Shown here one piece after another: positions 921 through 25,172 of a stretch of DNA of 32,000 bases. Positions within the stretch are counted from its first letter, which is position 1. Each line of letters opens with the position of its first letter. The notes under the pieces were generated by a model, which saw only the letters and a list, made by a program, of their open reading frames with translations, was not told the DNA's origin and did no database searches. The stretch comes from Candidatus Saccharimonadota bacterium (lineage in GTDB: Bacteria; Bacteroidota; Bacteroidia; Cytophagales; Amoebophilaceae). Location: NCBI RefSeq assembly GCF_003351905.1, contig NZ_CP022339.1, positions 870,001 to 902,000 on the forward strand, given 5' to 3'. The position numbers and the translations under genes were made by a program.

Positions 921-2837
921 ATGGGAAAAATAATTGGAATCGATTTAGGAACCACTAATTCCTGTGTTGCCGTTATGGAAGGCAATGAACCAGTAGTGAT
1001 TCCTAACAATGAAGGTAAAAGAACGACACCATCTGTAGTTGCTTTTTTAAATGGTGGGAAAGGGGAACGCAAGGTAGGTGATCCTGCTAAGCGTCAGGCC
1101 ATTATAAATCCTCATAATACCATAAGCTCTATTAAGCGTTTTATGGGTAAAGGGTATGACAGTGTGGCCAATGAGATCAATGAAGTGGCCTATAAGGTAG
1201 AAAATGGCGCGAACAATACCGTTCGTGTCCGGATTGGTGATCGGCTCTATACACCTCAAGAGATTTCCGCTATTATCTTGCAAAAGATGAAAAGTGCGGC
1301 GGAAGACTACTTAGGTACTACGGTTACAGATGCAGTGATTACCGTTCCTGCCTATTTTAATGATGCAGAGCGACAAGCGACTAAAGAGGCAGGAGAAATA
1401 GCTGGGCTAGCCGTAAAACGTATTATCAATGAACCAACTGCTGCTGCTTTAGCCTATGGTTTAGATAAAAAAAATAAAGACATCACCATCGCTGTATTTG
1501 ACCTTGGAGGAGGTACCTTTGATATTTCTATTCTAGACTTAGGTGATGGCGTTTTTGAGGTAAAGTCTACCAATGGAGACATTCATTTAGGTGGAGATGA
1601 TTTTGATCAAAAAATAACAGATTGGCTGGCCGATAACTTTCAAAAGGAGGAGGGTGTTGATTTAAGAAAAGATCCAACTGCCCTGCAGCGCCTAAGAGAG
1701 GCAGCTGAAAAAGCCAAAATTGAGCTTTCTAGTGCCTCTACTTCAGAGATTAATCTTCCCTACATTACCGCTATTGATGGCGTCCCTAAACATTTGGTTA
1801 AGCAGCTCTCTAGGGCTCAGTTTGAAAAATTGGTTGATGACTTGGTAAAGCGTACCCTAGCCCCCTGTAGGCAAGCTTTAACAGATGCCTTTGGCGATAT
1901 ATCTGATCCACAGAACAACATTCATGAGGTGATTTTAGTAGGTGGCTCTACCCGCATACCAAAGATTCAAGAAGAAGTAGAGCGTTTTTTTGGTAAAAAG
2001 CCTTCCAAGGGTGTTAATCCTGATGAAGTAGTAGCTGTAGGCGCTGCGATTCAAGGCGGTGTGTTAACTGGAGAAGTAAAAGATGTTTTATTGCTTGATG
2101 TTATTCCACTATCCTTAGGTATTGAAACATTAGGTGGTGTTTTTACCAAGTTAATTGAAGCCAATACTACGATTCCAACCAGAAAATCAGAAGTTTTTTC
2201 TACCGCTTCAGACAATCAATCTTCTGTTATGGTGCATGTATTGCAAGGCAATAGGCCGATGGCCAAGCACAACCGAACCATTGGCCAGTTTCACTTATCC
2301 GATATACCATCCGCTCCCAAGGGTGTTCCACAAATAGAGGTAGCTTTTGATGTAGATGCCAATGGTATATTGCATGTTTCTGCAAAAGATAGAGGTACAG
2401 GCAAGGAACAAAAAATTCGTATTGAGGCTTCGTCTGGTTTGACAGAAGATGAAATCAAGCGTATGAGAGAGGAGGCAGAAGTCAATGCAGCAGCAGATAA
2501 GGCAGAAAGGGAGCAAATGGATAAGGTTAATCAAGCGGATTCATTTATATTTGAAGTAGAAAAACAACTCAAAGAGTTGGGAGATAAAATTGACGCAGAA
2601 GATAGGAAAAAGATAGAGCCCGCTTTAGCAGATTTGAAGAAAGCACATGCAGAAAAAGAGGTGGTTGTTATTGATCAGGCATTAGAAACGCTAAACAAGA
2701 TTTGGAGTGAGGTCATGGCTAAGGTCTACCAAAAATCGCAAGCTGCGGGCGCAACATCCGCTGCTAGTGGGGAACAGGAAAATGCTAAAGAAGGTGGCAG
2801 TAACGTGACAGATGCTGAATTTGAAGAAGTAAAATAA
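921..2837 (+). CDS. dnaK: Molecular chaperone DnaK (Hsp70)
   Basis: [43 protein letters not shown] and a C-terminal acidic EEV-type tail. Full length at 638 aa. Confidence 0.98.
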
Positions 2838-3056: not shown

Positions 3057-4028
3057 ATGCTGAGAACCAAATATTATTATAACCCTGCTACTTGTAGCTA
3101 TGAGCGTGTACAGCGATCTATATCCACCTTTATTATACGTAGTTCTCTTTATATATTTTTTTCGGTCGTCTTAGCGGTAGCAATGGTTAGGTATTATCGA
3201 GGTCGTTTTGTTTCTTCTAGAGAGCTTGAGTTGCTACAAGATAATGAGCGGCTTAAGGCCTATTATCATATGGTGCAGAAAAAGATAGAAGGTAGCGTGG
3301 CCCTTTTGACTCGGTTGCAACAACAGGATGATGAACTATATAGGCTATTGTTGAATACGACTCCCCTTTCTCCTGCAGAGCGCAATGCGGGCATGGGAGG
3401 TGTAAATACATATGCCCATTTGGGGAAAGACACATTAATTGCCCAAACATTGTCTAAAGCAGAGCAACTCTATAGTAAATTAAAGGTTCAGCAGCAATCT
3501 TACAAGCAATTACGCGAGCTTGCCAAGCATAAGATGGCTAAGCTTGCTTCCACACCTACCTTTCCACCCGTTTCTAAAAAACATTTAAAAAGAATATCGG
3601 CCCCTTTTGGTATGCGTACCCATCCAATCCATCATATACGTAAGATGCATGAGGGGGTTGATTTTTCCGCTCCTATTCATACGCCGATTTATGCTGCTGC
3701 GGATGGGCATGTTAAGTGGGTTAAAAATGATAAAAAAGGATATGGGAACCATCTCCTTATTGAGCATGGCAATGGTTTTCAAACCCATTATGCCCATATG
3801 CATACTATAATCGTTCAAAAATCGAACCACATCATCAGAGGACAACAGATTGGTACAGTGGGCAACTCAGGGGATTCAACTGCTCCCCATCTCCACTATG
3901 AAGTCTACAGCAATAGACATCGTGTTGATCCGATTCAATATTTTGTAGGAGAGCTTACTGCTGCTGAATATGAAGCAGTTCGTAAGCAATCCACCCATCG
4001 TACACAAGCCCTTTGCTCCAATTTTTAG
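3057..4028 (+). CDS. M23 (LytM) family metallopeptidase with an N-terminal TM segment and a coiled-coil region
   Basis: HEGVDFSAP and GNSGDSTAPHLHYEV zinc-binding motifs, plus an N-terminal hydrophobic segment IIRSSLYIFFSVVLAVAMV. Confidence 0.9.
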   Translation: MLRTKYYYNPATCSYERVQRSISTFIIRSSLYIFFSVVLAVAMVRYYRGRFVSSRELELLQDNERLKAYYHMVQKKIEGSVALLTRLQQQDDELYRLLLNTTPLSPAERNAGMGGVNTYAHLGKDTLIAQTLSKAEQLYSKLKVQQQSYKQLRELAKHKMAKLASTPTFPPVSKKHLKRISAPFGMRTHPIHHIRKMHEGVDFSAPIHTPIYAAADGHVKWVKNDKKGYGNHLLIEHGNGFQTHYAHMHTIIVQKSNHIIRGQQIGTVGNSGDSTAPHLHYEVYSNRHRVDPIQYFVGELTAAEYEAVRKQSTHRTQALCSNF

Positions 4029-4311
4029 CAGGTTTTACACAGGGTATTTGTACTTATTTTGGAGTGGTATTAAAAAATAAGCTATCTTATAAGTTGATTT
4101 GCGTTTGTTTCATTTACGATATGGTGCACCTGACTGGTTTATCTAGCGCGCATATCCAGGATGTATACCTTTCCTCTGGGGGAGTCAGATAGATCTTTTT
4201 GCTATGGCTTACTGGAATCTTTATCTCTGTGTCTATCCGCCTCAAATGCATCTAGTATACTGGCTCTTGTTTGGTTCTTAAGCGTTACCAATAGCGGTTG
4301 AAAGAGGTCTT

Positions 4312-4635
4312 ATGCAAAAGAAATATTTTACCATTCAGGAGGTAGCGCGCCATTTTGATGTGGCGCCTTCTTTGATACGTTTTTGGGAAAAAACCTTTAG
4401 TGGCATCCTACAGCCTCATAAGAATAGCAAGGGAGCCAGAAGGTATCAAACAAAAGATATCACTCAGTTGCGTTATATCTATACACTGGTGAAGGAAAAA
4501 GGCTATAGTTTAGCCGGTGCACGCAAAGTAATCCAGAAACATCGTCGTCCGTTTGCCATTACACCCGCAGATGTTGTGCAACGGCTACAGGCGTTACGTG
4601 CTTTCTTAGGTGCGTTAAAAAAAGAGATACATTAG
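4312..4635 (+). CDS. Small MerR-family HTH transcriptional regulator
   Basis: The N-terminal sequence YFTIQEVARHFDVAPSLIRFWEKTF is a typical MerR helix-turn-helix. Only 107 aa, with no obvious effector domain. Confidence 0.75.
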   Translation: MQKKYFTIQEVARHFDVAPSLIRFWEKTFSGILQPHKNSKGARRYQTKDITQLRYIYTLVKEKGYSLAGARKVIQKHRRPFAITPADVVQRLQALRAFLGALKKEIH

Positions 4636-4782
4636 CTACACATTTGCACTGTTTGGGCAATGGCATCAGCTTAAGGAAAAGTGTATGGTAGCACAGAGGT
4701 GCAAAAGCGGTTTATAGATGGTGAATATGCCATCCCATTTATAGCTGTTGATAAAGATTAAAGTTTTACTTCAAGTGCTAAA

Positions 4783-5041
4783 GTATCTGTTCAAGTCGCT
4801 GGTGTTTTCCATTACAAGAAGACCGCCCCTGTAAAAAGTCGCGGTGTAGCAAGTGTCATCTTACAGATGATTAGGAAAAACAGTTTCCTTTCAAGCCCCC
4901 AAAGGGGGCGCTTACTGTTTTTCCATCTGTCAGATGACACTTTCAGTGACTTTTTACCGAGGGCTTGATTTTTTGTCCACTTTTTTATTAAGAACAAAGT
5001 GGGATAAAGTTCATTGTTAACCAAATGGTGTGAATAGATAC
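4783..5041 (+). repeat. MITE-like palindromic element, copy A (complete)
   Basis: Starts GTATCTGTTCA and ends TGAATAGATAC (TIR). The interior is a long imperfect palindrome centred on GCCCCCaaaGGGGGC (4895-4909). Near-identical to the copies at 8257, 24154 and 24942. Confidence 0.8.
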
Positions 5042-5276
5042 GCAATAAAATATATTCCTTAAGTTGACACCATTGTGTCGTACGTTTGTATTATAAGCTT
5101 ATTTTACTTAAAGAGCTGGAATAAGGTCGCTTAAGTGCTGGTATTAGATGCCGTTTTACACGTTCCGCCCCCCGCTCTTTTCATCTTAAAAACTGAATAG
5201 TTCGTTGGCCCTTAGAGCCCGTGGTTGCGACGATAGTTTATAAGATGATTCAATTTAGTATAAACTTTCTAATAAT
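5042..5276 (+). ncRNA. Non-coding left end of the IS110 element; candidate bridge (guide) RNA region
   Basis: By position only. IS110-subgroup elements encode a structured recombination guide RNA in the 5' non-coding end. TTGACA at 5064-5069 with TATTAT at 5089-5094 (19-nt spacer) is a weak promoter-like pair. I did not verify a fold. Confidence 0.25.
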
Positions 5277-5568
5277 ATGAAATATATAGGCATTGATATA
5301 TCAAAAAGCAGCTTTGTAGCTGCTTTTCCTAAAGGTGAAGGATTTACTACGTCTAAATATTCAAATGATGTAAATGGGCTTAACCTATTTTTGGCTCAAC
5401 TTGATAGATCCTTGCATCACTGTGTTTTAGAAGCCACTGGCAATTATGGCGCTTTATTAGTAGAGATGCTTATAGCAGCTGAGCTAGCTGTTTCAGTTGT
5501 TAATCCAAGGCAAATCAAACACTTTGCTAAGGCAATGCATCATATAACTAAAACCGATAAGGTAGATG
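5277..5568 (+). CDS. IS110-family transposase, exon 1 (N-terminal DEDD domain)
   Basis: IGIDISK, LEATGNYG, VNPRQIKHFAKA, KTDKVD. Family similarity ends abruptly after KTDKVD, where the GC-rich intron sequence starts. Confidence 0.85.
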
Positions 5569-6094
5569 GCGTGCCACGAAGGCCTCCTTTCTAGTGGGTG
5601 CAAGTCCCACCCTGGCAATAGGCCTGTTGGCCAGGTAGCGAGGAGTGCATCTATAAAGAGTAATTTTTGTAGATGAAGCCACTCGACGACGGCTCTGTAC
5701 AAGGAGCTACGCAAACTGCGGGCCGTACGCAAGGAACCTATATGTAGCGCCGTGAAGGTCTTACCAGAGAAATCTGGGAATTGGAGATGCTGAGCCTCTC
5801 GTCTGGTGGGCGAAAGCTGTAAAGTGACGGAAAGATAACAGGTCAATAACCGTCACTTATCTCCCGGCGTAGCAGGGGCGGCACGTAGGAAAGAAAGGAG
5901 GAGAAACGTGGGAGATCCTGCACGGTCTTTAAGTTCCAAGAGTAAGGAAGGATATAAGGCGCAAGTCGAAGTTCGTTCCGATGCTGTGCAGGAAGTCGGG
6001 AAGATAGTAGTAGTGAAGATGGCAAGGACAACAAAACCTTACCGGAGCGAAGGATCTTCAGTTTCGTCATGTTTTCAAAACAGGGAAAGATACC

Positions 6095-7393
6095 ATGATT
6101 CCGCAAGGTAACCACATGGCACAAAGCGTCCGAGAACTGCAGCGAGAACTTTATCGATCTGCTAAGTCTAATCCTAAACGCAGCTTCTACACCCTTCATG
6201 ACAAAATATATAGATTGGACGTACTGGTCTGTTCATGGAAACAGGTTTGTGCAAATCACGGGGCACCAGGCATAGATGGAATAACAATAGAACAAATCAA
6301 AGAACAAGGGGAAGAAGCGTTTCTTGGACAAGTTCAAAAAGAACTGGAATCAGGAAGCTACCGAAGCAATAAGACAAAGCGCGTGGAAATACCCAAACCG
6401 AAAGGAGGAATAAGAATCTTGGGAGTGCCCACGATTAAGGACCGCTTAGTACAAACTGCAACCCGTCTTGTTATAGAGCCAATTTTTGAAGCAGACTTCC
6501 AAGAATGCTCATTTGGGTTTCGACCTAAACGATCCGCAGTCCATGCAAGTCTATCAATATATAAATGGCTTAATTACGGGCTCACCCAAGTTTTAGATAT
6601 TGATTTGAAGCGATACTTTGACTCAATCCCACACGATAAGCTTATGAAAGTCATTCAAAAGCGAATCAGTGATAGGTATGTTCTAAAGTTAATACAAGCC
6701 TGGCTTCGCTCAGGAGTCCTTAAAGGCGAAGAAGTTGCTACTCGACAAGGATCCCCTCAAGGGTCCCCCATTTCGCCCTTACTTTCTAATATATACCTGA
6801 ATCTGCTAGACACAGTATGGGTCAAGCGGATGACCGAAAGGAATGGGTGGAATGCACAGATTGTCCGCTATGCGGACGATCTCGTGATAGTGTCGAATAA
6901 ACCGGTAGAGAAGATTTTGGGTATTTTATGTGGGTATCTGCAACGCTTGGGCCTTTCGATCAATGAAGAAAAGAGTCGAATGACCACGGCCGAAGAAGGT
7001 TTCAATTTCTTAGGGTATGCCTTTAAAAGGGGATACTCGCCAAGATATCAGAAACCCGTTACCCATATGTATCCTACACCTGATGCAATCAAGCGGATTA
7101 TTAAGAAAGTCACGCAATTGACCTATCGGAACCGGTTGCACGAAAGTGTTGAAACTATTGTTAAAGACTTAAACGCATCCTTACTGGGGTGGACGGAGTA
7201 TTACCGTCACACGGCCAGTTCTAGGAGATTTAGGAAAGTACAAGGGCATGCAAACAGGCGTCTGAGAAGATTTATCATGAAAAAGAAAGGGAGTAGGAAG
7301 AACGGGTATAAGGAACTCCCCGACGAGAAGCTCCACAAAGTGTACAAATTAGTCAATGTAGGAGCTTATCGGGTGCGATACAGATGGACGTAA
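6095..7393 (+). CDS. Group II intron reverse transcriptase/maturase (no endonuclease domain)
   Basis: GAPGIDGITIEQI (RT0), FRPKRSAVHA, DIDLKRYFDSIPH, QGSPISPLLSNIYL, RYADDLVIV (YADD), and X/maturase FNFLGYAF and LLGWTEYYRH. The alternative start MAQSV at 6116 is plausible. Confidence 0.95.
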   Translation: MIPQGNHMAQSVRELQRELYRSAKSNPKRSFYTLHDKIYRLDVLVCSWKQVCANHGAPGIDGITIEQIKEQGEEAFLGQVQKELESGSYRSNKTKRVEIPKPKGGIRILGVPTIKDRLVQTATRLVIEPIFEADFQECSFGFRPKRSAVHASLSIYKWLNYGLTQVLDIDLKRYFDSIPHDKLMKVIQKRISDRYVLKLIQAWLRSGVLKGEEVATRQGSPQGSPISPLLSNIYLNLLDTVWVKRMTERNGWNAQIVRYADDLVIVSNKPVEKILGILCGYLQRLGLSINEEKSRMTTAEEGFNFLGYAFKRGYSPRYQKPVTHMYPTPDAIKRIIKKVTQLTYRNRLHESVETIVKDLNASLLGWTEYYRHTASSRRFRKVQGHANRRLRRFIMKKKGSRKNGYKELPDEKLHKVYKLVNVGAYRVRYRWT

Positions 7394-7416
7394 TGCAGAC
7401 GAAGAAGACGATCCGT

Positions 7417-7449
7417 GCGCCGTATGAGGGAAAACCTCACGTACGGTGC
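7417..7449 (+). ncRNA. Group II intron domain V
   Basis: GCGCCGUAU-GAGG-gaaaa-CCUC-AC-GUACGGUGC. It has the conserved CCGUAU / AC-bulge / GUACGG architecture, with a CGC triad instead of AGC. Confidence 0.8.
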
Positions 7450-7474
7450 GACGGGGGGGTGCTGGAAACGGGAA

Positions 7475-7563
7475 AGAGAGATTGGGTTATTTAGGCACGA
7501 AATCGGAAACGATGGACACGGATAAACCTGGTCCTATACTTCACCGCGCCAGTGCTCTACTCT
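7475..7563 (+). ncRNA. Tentative group II intron domain VI with bulged branch-point A at 7559
   Basis: AGAGAGA (7475-7481) pairs with TCT-A-CTCT (7556-7563), leaving A7559 bulged at position -7 from the predicted 3' splice site. The helix encloses about 74 nt, which is unusually large. Confidence 0.35.
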
Positions 7564-7565
7564 AC

Positions 7566-8245
7566 CTTTTAAACTAGCTCGCTATGGACAGGAAAGGGGA
7601 TTGAAAGCTAATTACAGCTATTATATTACAACAGATCGGCTTAAAAGGCAACAACAAAGAAGAGAAGAGCTGGTAGCTACATTAAGCAATGAAAAGAAAC
7701 GGTTACACCATAGCCAGACTAATATAGATAAAGAAAGCATAGAAAGGCATATCGATTTTTTAGAAAAAGAAATAAAAATTATTGATAAAGCGTTAAATAA
7801 AACCATAACTACTGATAAGGATCTAGACGAAAAGGCTAATATACTAGAAACCATTCCAGGAATCGGGAAATGTTTAGCCACTAAATTAGTCAGTTTTTTA
7901 CCTGAATTAGGTGATAGAAGCTACAGTAGTAATCAACTATCAGCTTTAGTAGGTATAGCACCATATGCGGCTGATAGTGGGAAAAAACAGGGAAAAAGAT
8001 TTATTAGGGGAGGAAGGAAAATACCACGAGATGCACTGTATATGGCTGTATTAGCAGGGAAAAAGTGGTTCCTATATTTAAAAGAATGCTATGATAGATT
8101 AGTAGGTAAATATAAGCCTAAAAAAGTGGCTATCGTAGCATGTATGAGGAAGCTCCTAGAGCTGGCGCATAAGCTTATACAACAAAAAAGAAGCTTCGTC
8201 AAAAGTATCAAAAACGAGTACAAAATGACTAAAAAACTTGCATAG
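7566..8245 (+). CDS. IS110-family transposase, exon 2 (C-terminal domain)
   Basis: The frame is open upstream of the called TTG (7601) and reads FKLARYGQERGLKANY. Also IPGIGKCLATKLVSFLPELGD and LVGIAPYAADSGKKQGKRFIRGGRKIPRDALYMAV, as in the Transposase_20-type domain. Confidence 0.85.
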
Positions 8246-8256
8246 TAAGATAATAG

Positions 8257-8472
8257 CTTTTTTCTTGATAAAAAAGTGGACAAAAAATCAAGCCCTCGGT
8301 AAAAAGTCGCTGAAAGTGCCATCTTCCAGATGGAAAAACAGAAAGTACCCCTTTTGGGGGCTTCAAAGGAAACTGTTTTTCCTAATCATCTGTAAAATGC
8401 CATTTTCTAAACCGCGACTTTTTTCAGGGGCGTTGTTCTTTTAACGCAAAAACCACTGCGCTGAACACATAC
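8257..8472 (-). repeat. MITE-like palindromic element, copy B (inverted relative to A; the IS-proximal end lacks about 40 nt)
   Basis: Matches the reverse complement of copy C almost base for base from CTTTTTTCTTGATAAAAAAGTGGAC through GCGCTGAACACATAC. The similarity begins 12 nt after the transposase stop. Confidence 0.8.
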
Positions 8473-24068: not shown

Positions 24069-24141
<73 letters not shown>

Positions 24142-24153
24142 CGTCTGATCTGT

Positions 24154-24413
24154 GTATGTGTTTAGAGCCACTGGTTTTCTGCGTCCAAAGAACAACGCCC
24201 CTGTAAAAAGTCGTGGTGTAGAAAGTGGCATTTTACAGATGATTAGGAAAAATAGTTTCCTTTCAAGCCCCTATAGGGGGGCGGTTTCTGTTTTTCCATC
24301 TGTAAGATGACACTTTCAGCGACTTTTTACCGAGGGCTTGATTTTTTGTCCACTTTTTTATCAAGAAAAAAGTGGGATAAAGTTCATCATTAACGAGTAA
24401 TGTGAACAGATAC
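24154..24413 (+). repeat. MITE-like palindromic element, copy C (complete), inserted between tRNA-Gly and tRNA-Leu
   Basis: GTATGTGTTTA...TGAACAGATAC termini, central GCCCCtataGGGGG hairpin and a 10-bp CCACTTTTTT/AAAAAAGTGG hairpin (24350-24375). Confidence 0.85.
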
Positions 24414-24433: not shown

Positions 24434-24516
24434 GCCAGGATGGTGGAATTGGTATACACGCAAGACTTAAAATCTTGTGGCCTTTGGCCATGCGGGTTCG
24501 ACCCCCGCTCCTGGTA
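24434..24516 (+). tRNA. tRNA-Leu (anticodon TAA), type II with a long variable arm
   Basis: Acceptor GCCAGGA/TCCTGGT (G1:U72 wobble), anticodon stem CAAGA/TCTTG with loop CTTAAAA, variable arm GGCC-ttt-GGCC, T arm GCGGG-TTCGACC-CCCGC. Confidence 0.9.
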
Positions 24517-24546
24517 CGCATTAAAGCATTGTTTCTGGTTGTATCG

Positions 24547-24876: not shown

Positions 24877-24941
24877 AACATTGCGATGCATACCTTATCC
24901 TTCGCATCCCTTCAGTTGTATGGCCAGGCTACTCTAAAGTA

Positions 24942-25172
24942 GTATCTGTTCAACTCACTGGGGGGGGGGGATTAAAAGCAAACCGCCCCTGTAAAAAGTC
25001 GTGGTGCAGCAAGTGGCATTTTACAGATGATTAGGAAAAACAGTTTCCTTTAAAGCCCACGTAGTGGGCGCTTTCTGTTGTTCCATCTGCCAGATGGCAC
25101 TTGCAACGACTTTTTACCGAGGGCTTGATTTTTTGCTTACTTTTTTATCAAGAAAAAAGTAAAAATAAAATT
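24942..25172 (+). repeat. MITE-like palindromic element, copy D (right terminus decayed; carries a G11 tract)
   Basis: GTATCTGTTCAACTCACTG followed by G x11 (24960-24970), then the conserved CCCCTGTAAAAAGTCG core. Compensated stems GCCCAC/GTGGGC (25055-25069) and TTACTTTTTT/AAAAAAGTAA (25137-25162). Confidence 0.75.

Follow-up and report, generated by a model that had tools for sequence, protein, structure and literature searches.

A full-length group II intron of 1997 nucleotides (nt) occupies positions 5569–7565 (+) of the stretch of DNA analysed here, a 32,000-nt window of the chromosome of the insect symbiont Cardinium cSfur (contig NZ_CP022339.1, positions 870,001 to 902,000). It lies in the sense strand of a gene of the IS110 family of insertion sequences (IS), directly behind the first base of the Ala98 codon in the motif KTDKVD|A. 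Judged by sequence comparison, the two exons are not parts of one gene, and the spliced product would be a colinear hybrid of two IS110 lineages, for which the labels IS-A (the Cardinium IS110 left of the intron) and IS-B (a different, Rickettsiales-like IS110 to its right) were coined in this analysis. The account favoured here, at a probability of roughly 60%, is that the hybrid arose through homologous recombination between copies of the intron residing in IS-A and in IS-B. The parts on either side of the intron are as follows.

5075–5276 (+): left non-coding end of IS-A, before the start codon, with 95–96% nt identity to IS-A copies
5277–5568 (+): 5' exon, holding codons 1–97 and the first base of the Ala98 codon; N-terminal DEDD part, ending ...KTDKVD
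7566–8245 (+): 3' exon, from the second base of the Ala98 codon to the stop; rest of the DEDD domain, linker and Transposase_20
8246–8262 (+): 3' non-coding tail of IS-B; the match to IS-B copy L012 runs to 8262, where L012 stops at its contig end, and that to L013 to 8265

The coding sequence flanking the intron is recognisably that of an IS110 transposase. The open reading frame (ORF) at 5277–5594 matches Pfam DEDD_Tnp_IS110 over residues 4–97 (model positions 1–98 of 155, 60 bits), and the frame open from 7526 to 8245 matches Transposase_20 (54.6 bits), in line with a first-pass annotation of the sequence which had read the two as the N-terminal and C-terminal domains of an IS110 protein. 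In silico deletion of 5569–7565 joins GAT G|CT TTT within an ORF of 323 amino acids (aa), in which DEDD_Tnp_IS110 extends to model positions 1–148 of 155 (83.4 bits), ahead of a Transposase_20 match (54.4 bits). Since the DEDD match grows from 60 to 83 bits on joining, with Transposase_20 after it, the joined frame is colinear with the IS110 family, as had been anticipated. The motifs GIDxxK, EATG and KTDxxDA and the C-terminal Ser domain are all present in the joined ORF, and the KxDxxDA motif, by its position, presumably supplies the final two of the acidic residues that make up the DEDD catalytic set.

What did not survive comparison was the earlier claim of a single transposase gene, split by the intron and intact after splicing, for the two halves stem from IS-A and IS-B. 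On the left, 5075–5568 shows 95–96% nt identity to uninterrupted IS-A copies from Cardinium sp. TP (L001), the Cardinium of Nabis limbatus (L009) and the Logan contigs L108 and L109. Three independent intact IS-A copies read ...GGTAGATG|CGCAACTT across the site (GATG|); the uninterrupted site is GGTAGATG|CGCA, its protein goes on as KTDKVDA QLIALYGAKMEPK (...DA|QLIALYG), and past 5568 the DNA of this continuation no longer resembles that of the window. On the right, 7566–8262 is 79.8% identical at the nt level to L012 and 77.7% to L013, with 7566 as the first matching base. Uninterrupted IS-B copies read ...GACG|CTTTTAAATTAGC or ...GATT|CTTTTAAACTAGC, and the IS-B target site is ACATGACG|CTTT. 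Two IS-B copies have their own N-terminal part upstream of CTTTTAAA; the IS-B N-terminal parts read ...FSKS.DRCKTDKHDA, unlike that of the window.

The same division is found in the protein. Residues 1–97 are 92.8–93.8% identical to IS-A and 24–30% to IS-B, and residues 98–323 are 70–77% identical to IS-B and 27% to IS-A, the proteins nearest to this IS-B-type C-terminal part (70–77% aa identity) coming from contigs and from Rickettsia and Tisiphia endosymbionts. DNA comparison found no IS-A 3' part and no IS-B 5' part within the window, and the switch from IS-A to IS-B falls exactly on the intron ends, on both sides. Given these reciprocal identities and the position of the switch, the predicted product of the ligated mRNA is therefore a hybrid.

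The limits of the intron are set from three sides. Eleven full-length relatives (L014–L024; 83–87% nt identity) align with it from position 1–3 to position 1996–1997 and diverge outside, similarity to uninterrupted IS-A copies stops after 5568, and similarity to uninterrupted IS-B copies begins at 7566. Because all three give the same limits, the intron is placed at 5569–7565, which is to the nucleotide the junction (5568/5569 and 7565/7566) first proposed. The 3' end, CUAC, fits the consensus AY. The 5' end, GCGUG, is a variant of the consensus GUGYG (U2 to C), the aligned 5' ends in relatives being GUGUG (L019–L024) or GCGCG (three identical Paracaedimonas copies), and from this alignment GCGUG is read as a variant of the clade.

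Rfam, Pfam and the full-length relatives establish that the intron is complete, of group II and in the sense orientation of an IS110-family gene, and the hallmarks named in the first-pass annotation hold, namely structured 5' RNA, a reverse transcriptase (RT)/maturase with YADD and without an endonuclease (En) domain, a domain V and an ...AC end. At the Rfam gathering threshold, group-II-D1D4-4 matches 5592–5732 with 87.4 bits (cut-off 49 bits), and Intron_gpII, which covers domains V and VI, matches 7415–7565 with 45.7 bits (cut-off 40 bits), so that both covariance models lie above their cut-offs. An RNAalifold consensus of six relatives contains 151 pairs, with compensatory changes in 9. 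The layout of the intron, including a candidate for exon-binding site 1 (EBS1), is given below.

5574–5911 (+): domain I, compact in the consensus fold, with closing helix 5574–5578/5907–5911; includes the Rfam D1D4-4 match
5794–5811 (+): candidate-EBS1 hairpin of domain I, with loop CGUC(UG) at 5800–5805
5912–5997 (+): domain II, from the consensus fold
6000–6059 (+): domain III, from the consensus fold
6095–7393 (+): RT/maturase ORF of 432 aa within domain IV; has YADD, lacks an endonuclease domain
7417–7449 (+): domain V, with catalytic triad CGC at 7418–7420 and a GAAA loop, from the Rfam Intron_gpII alignment
7453–7563 (+): domain VI, with an unusual distal extension of ~90 nt, seen as two large insertions in the Rfam alignment

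The RT/maturase matches Pfam RVT_1 over residues 99–309 (128.7 bits) and GIIM over residues 332–399 (54.2 bits), and NCBI annotates ORF 6095–7393 as 'group II intron reverse transcriptase/maturase' and the neighbouring ORFs as 'transposase'. Compared with solved structures it scores 212 bits against the GsI-IIC RT, 197 against the E. rectale intron, 151 against T.el4h and 112 against LtrA; no intron class is assigned on this basis, because the set of solved structures holds no members of bacterial classes D, E and F. The predicted fold of domain VI has a z-score of −3.7, and A7559, which in the Rfam alignment stands in a 2-nt bulge of this domain, 7 nt from the 3' splice site, is from its position the presumed branch point. 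Two ORFs of 117–118 aa run antisense through the ribozyme domains, at 5493–5846 (−) and 5843–6199 (−); they are missing from the protein collection and are probably spurious.

In the candidate EBS1, the loop CGUC (5800–5803) is complementary to 5'-exon ends GAUG/GACG, and this 4-nt core is found in all relatives. The pairing reaches 6–7 base pairs, with covariation beyond the core, only in the window, L019 and L028, and since pairing over more than four bases is thus confined to some relatives, the EBS1 is called a candidate only. The segment CCGUCAC (5851–5857) was also considered as EBS1 and rejected, as it forms one strand of a covariation-supported helix (columns 256–298). The 3'-exon base +1 is C in every clade member whose 3' boundary could be placed.

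The nearest relatives of the RT (84–90% aa identity) were found in metagenomes and in an alphaproteobacterial symbiont of amoebae, Candidatus Paracaedimonas acanthamoebae. In the 11 close relatives the intron stands after ...GATG and before C, and nearly all of these loci consist of an IS110 N-terminal ORF of ~100 aa, the intron and a Transposase_20 ORF; splicing L014, L015 and L019 in silico yields full-length, colinear IS110 proteins. The exception is L016 on the Paracaedimonas chromosome, the flanks of which have no IS110 domain match and the 5' exon of which reads ...AAKKNDSLD at GATG|C. As no recognisable IS110 domain surrounds it, L016 is regarded as an ectopic site or a decayed IS. Together with L017 and L018, on two plasmids of the same organism, it has an identical RT and essentially identical DNA in three different exon contexts. 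L018 has in addition a 1-nt deletion at its 5' junction and a 3' end ...CTCTAA.

More distant RT relatives, at 48–78% identity (L027–L035, from a metagenome scan), also lie in IS110 genes. Their sites include ...WNKSDKQD|ARNMV (L028), ...GNKTDKID|AKRLV (L035), |AVWICDLMRHGLLKPSFIPP (L030) and |AVWICDLMRHGLLKPSF, and L033 and L034 have IS110 profile matches in their flanks. RTs of at most 44% identity are found in other, unrelated exons. Since the site is shared by relatives across 48–90% RT identity, the predicted target of the clade is the Asp-Ala codon pair (GAY G|CN) within the KxDxxDA motif, in host IS110 genes whose mutual identity is only ~25–30%. The loci compared show one predicted homing site clade-wide, with the DNA consensus GAY G|C, in genes for DEDD transposases. 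An intron clade tied to the Asp-Ala site of IS110 is not described in the literature consulted, which has only general statements on introns in transposases; this absence is in itself weak evidence.

The intron is richer in G+C (GC) than its surroundings, as had been observed at the outset, with 46.5% GC against 35% in both exons; the cSfur genome has 39.2% (PMC6147030). In the closest relatives (83–87% nt identity) intron GC is 45–47% whatever the GC of the exons (35–47%), and in L028 and L035, two more distant members of the clade, it is 50–53%. Because the relatives' values stay similar across exon compositions, the high GC appears intrinsic to the intron and not to the host, and by itself it is no evidence of recent arrival. 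The earlier argument from high GC to a recent, foreign origin is thus supported only in part. A foreign origin is better argued from the close relatives, which occur in metagenomes and in an amoeba symbiont of the Alphaproteobacteria, and recent spread is no more than suggested by the at least five identical copies in the genome, since short-read gap-filling could also yield identical-looking copies.

On the recombination account, intron copies at the equivalent codon of IS-A and IS-B would have offered an identical 2-kb stretch, and recombination within that stretch would have generated the IS-A-5'/intron/IS-B-3' hybrid with rearranged flanks. Transcription from the IS-A left end and RT-assisted splicing would then ligate GAU G to CU UUU and give a 323-aa hybrid, to which IS-A would contribute all four DEDD residues, D7, E52, D94 and D97 (assigned by motif position), and IS-B the Ser-containing C-terminal domain. 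In the IS110 family the ends of each element are matched to its own guide RNA. For this reason the hybrid element is unlikely to transpose, and with the left end of IS-A and the right end of IS-B it most likely represents an immobile scar left by recombination. The intron, for its part, is probably still active.

Other copies within cSfur bear on this account. At least five identical RT genes are present, each beside an identical IS-B C-terminal ORF (accession pairs 24013/14, 24068/69, 24083/82 and 24265/64, plus the window), and the ORF spanning the IS-A/intron junction occurs only twice, as AXI24011 and as the window's AXI24465. Exact-protein look-ups returned one 1.65-kb Logan contig only for the RT and none for the C-terminal ORF, and the genome-contig scan covered genomes other than cSfur; as the look-ups yielded no further cSfur copies, the copy structure is drawn from the adjacency of accessions. 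An intron-less IS-A remnant extends over the site in cSfur (...KTDKVDAQLIALYG, P0371), and IS-A 3' parts are present that do not adjoin an RT gene. Outside the window, P0252 (AXI23930) is an IS-A C-terminal ORF starting MFVNSSLRYASRLTFSEWLK|LIALYG and truncated two codons past the intron site; for its 20 N-terminal residues no match was found among the sequences retrieved, apart from a faint likeness to IS-A ...SAIRFNKACKDFYEWLK. The cSfur genome paper does not mention introns, and in another Cardinium genome group II introns and the IS110-family element ISCca12 have been noted (PMC9769881).

Illumina reads were the only data behind the cSfur chromosome, and SOAPdenovo2 was used for assembly, SSPACE for scaffolding and GapFiller for closing (PMC6147030). 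As the genome was built from short reads alone, assembly collapse is a serious rival to recombination: real junctions of different intron copies would have been merged through the identical 2-kb intron, and what exists in the cell would be an ordinary IS-A and an ordinary IS-B, each interrupted. Both junction sequences must exist in the sample, and it is their sharing of one intron copy that depends on scaffolding. Such merging is what this combination of short reads, SSPACE and GapFiller could produce, the intron, both IS parts and a flanking dispersed repeat (repeat R, described below) are all multicopy, and every RT and every C-terminal copy is given as 100% identical, the outcome to be expected of consensus gap-filling. 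Furthermore, the Logan contig L011, which is 100% identical to the intron, ends 1 nt past the intron 3' end, and this stop fits at least two different 3' exons, because both begin with C (IS-A CGCAAC, IS-B CTTTTA). Set against these points, the junction ORF, the RT and the IS-B C-terminal ORF are annotated together at two separate loci, mate-pair libraries of up to 40 kb were available for scaffolding (PMC6147030), and no junction of the intron with an IS-A 3' part is visible, the N-terminal extension of AXI23930 not being intron-derived and its accession not standing beside any RT. Taken together, merging during assembly is judged unlikely, though it is the strongest of the alternatives.

A pre-existing mosaic IS110, with an IS-A N-terminal and an IS-B C-terminal part and possibly mobile, could instead have been invaded by an intron that played no part in its making. 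Mosaic ISs are known in general, the hybrid stands at no fewer than two loci in the assembly, and the joined ORF is intact and colinear. The lineage switch, on the other hand, matches the intron site to the nucleotide on both sides, which would be a coincidence without the intron, and among the matches listed there is no intron-less protein of such composition, full N-terminal parts being of either IS-A or IS-B type. As the breakpoint would have to match the intron site by chance, this origin is improbable. Least probable is the model of the first-pass annotation, in which one ordinary IS110 was interrupted by homing and splicing restores its own transposase: the frame is indeed restored and KTDxxDA recreated, as in the relatives L014, L015 and L019, but the N- and C-terminal identities are 93/27% to IS-A and 30/77% to IS-B, and the DNA homologies break at the intron.

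Recombination between intron copies thus remains the favoured origin, and several points weigh against it. The linkage of left and right parts across a 2-kb multicopy repeat could be a product of short-read assembly, and no reciprocal product (IS-B 5'/intron/IS-A 3') turned up, the known IS-A 3' parts of cSfur lying away from RT genes; a protein search with the reciprocal chimera, aimed at an IS-B N-terminal part in cSfur, gave a list filled by full-length IS110s. The break in synteny at the locus speaks for rearrangement, but since repeat R is abundant, recombination at R or the activity of another IS could also explain it. The 5' end GCGUG deviates from GUGYG, with the GCGCG relatives existing as three identical copies, and the candidate EBS1 shares no more than a 4-nt pairing with intron-binding site 1 across all relatives. 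Splicing and mobility are predicted, on the indirect evidence of the at least five identical copies in cSfur and of the many unrelated IS110 genes in which this site is occupied.

Within 4600–8700 Rfam finds no family besides the intron. The predicted fold of 5075–5280 is no better than that of shuffled sequences (z = −0.57), and the IS-A copies, all ~95% identical, are too alike for covariation. With neither an Rfam match nor a significant fold, no bridge RNA is identified in 5075–5276; a promoter or bridge-RNA role of this segment can be surmised only. Downstream of the IS-A transposase gene, L001 (~1880–1930), L009 (~7050–7100) and L108 (~1375–1403) carry a long hairpin (GATGTGGACTTATGGATAA...TTATCCATAAGTCCACATC), and the IS-B contig L012 has a similar one upstream of its transposase gene (~285–345). 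P0018 (L013), considered as an intron-split IS-B copy, was rejected, being interrupted by a DDE-type IS instead, and P0028 is not on record.

The surroundings of the composite element are rich in repeat R, a dispersed Cardinium repeat, copies of which were located as follows.

4783–5041 (+): copy in the left flank, ~260 nt
8257–8472 (−): inverted, truncated copy abutting the right end, from repeat comparison
24154–24413, 24941–25160 and 27565–27726: other copies in the window
1857–2116, 3604–3860 and 17968–18225 of L105 (Cardinium sp. TP): copies in that contig

Repeat R is ~220–260 nt long, has five copies in the 32 kb and is abundant in Cardinium sp. TP, at 80–90% identity. Each copy contains internal inverted repeats and has the look of a MITE (miniature inverted-repeat transposable element); the repeat is absent from the descriptions in the cSfur paper. 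Positions 4805–4999 and 8257–8451 form a 195-nt inverted repeat, 89% complementary, which was rejected as the pair of IS ends, its arms being copies of the dispersed repeat R found elsewhere. A 21-nt inverted pair (CAATGGCATCAGCTTAAGGAA / TTCCTTAAGTTGACACCATTG), at 4658–4678 and 5055–5075, bounds a segment of ~418 nt that holds an R copy. The 21-nt motif also stands beside the DDE-type IS in L013 (328–369) and 27 nt from the IS-A right end in L001 (2010–2045). The 418-nt segment is possibly a MITE that belongs to a DDE-type IS, and the neighbourhood of the 21-nt motif possibly a preferred insertion site of IS-A.

In comparison with Cardinium sp. TP (L105) the locus is a synteny break (window 4656–8626), the left flank matching TP to ~4955. 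Past a gene of the MerR family, TP has a gene of 430 aa followed by radical SAM and ABC-F genes, and cSfur has bamA and queA (−). An 843-nt stretch of TP with a PDDEXK_2 gene is missing at window position 4118/4119, and elsewhere in the window the genes for tRNA-Gly(GCC) (24069–24142) and tRNA-Leu(UAA) (24434–24517) flank a complete R copy.

Several known systems share features with the cSfur intron. RmInt1 of Sinorhizobium meliloti, the classic endonuclease-less intron that homes to an IS, has its homing site in the transposase gene of ISRm2011-2 and is multicopy (PMC1802570). The cSfur intron resembles it in having an RT/maturase without the DNA-binding and endonuclease (D/En) domains, an IS gene as natural homing site and several copies. 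Retrohoming of RmInt1 is presumed to take place at replication forks, and its host ISRm2011-2 is an IS630-type element. The host here is of a different family, IS110; in addition, only ~4–5 target nt (GAY G|C) are common to the sites of the cSfur-type clade, and the site codes for a catalytic motif that is IS-family-wide.

Likeness to group IIC introns such as GsI-IIC and O.i.I1 is seen in the RT, which among solved structures is nearest to those of IIC, in the lack of an En domain and in the short 5'-exon match, as well as in a domain V triad of CGC rather than AGC. For class C introns the insertion site lies downstream of a stem-loop, that of a terminator or of attC (PMC7306698). The clade described here, in contrast, inserts inside coding sequence and has the domain VI extension of ~90 nt; no upstream stem-loop was found at 7 sites, whose 42–45 upstream nt fold weakly (−0.7 to −3.9 kcal/mol, z −1.4 to +0.7).

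Bacterial group II introns are often found in transposase genes (PMC7306698), and with regard to introns 'hiding' in mobile elements (Waldern et al. 2020; Dai & Zimmerly 2002), that of cSfur is one such case. It differs from other IS-nested introns in that a whole clade occupies one IS110 codon pair across phyla and in that the cSfur copy joins two IS halves. The joined protein follows the order of the IS110 DEDD transposases, which are bridge-RNA-guided (e.g. IS621), with DEDD_Tnp_IS110 and then Transposase_20 over ~320 aa, and departs from an ordinary IS110 in that its frame and its ends come from two lineages. The nested arrangement of an intron in an IS is already known, and what is modestly new is the clade-wide site specificity together with the hybrid exons. 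Current understanding is not overturned, both introns in ISs and repeats as recombination substrates being established.

For annotation, the finding means that the two 'transposase' ORFs and the RT gene, in cSfur and in related symbiont genomes, form one nested retroelement/IS unit, and that its halves are not to be merged as a pseudogene of a single IS. For the intron family, one codon pair of a catalytic motif lets a group II intron track an IS family across phyla with ~5 conserved target bases. A broader proposal, made tentatively and at somewhat less than even odds, is that this is a deep, IIC-like, endonuclease-less clade specialised on the IS110 Asp-Ala codons in unrelated bacteria, which would drive domain swaps between recombinases and rearrangement of symbiont chromosomes; if true, the swap seen here would join the DEDD N-terminal part and left end of one IS to a Ser domain and right end that belong to another. 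Should the hybrid be real, copies of the intron serve as portable homology by which unrelated IS110 recombinases are recombined and reduced symbiont genomes rearranged.

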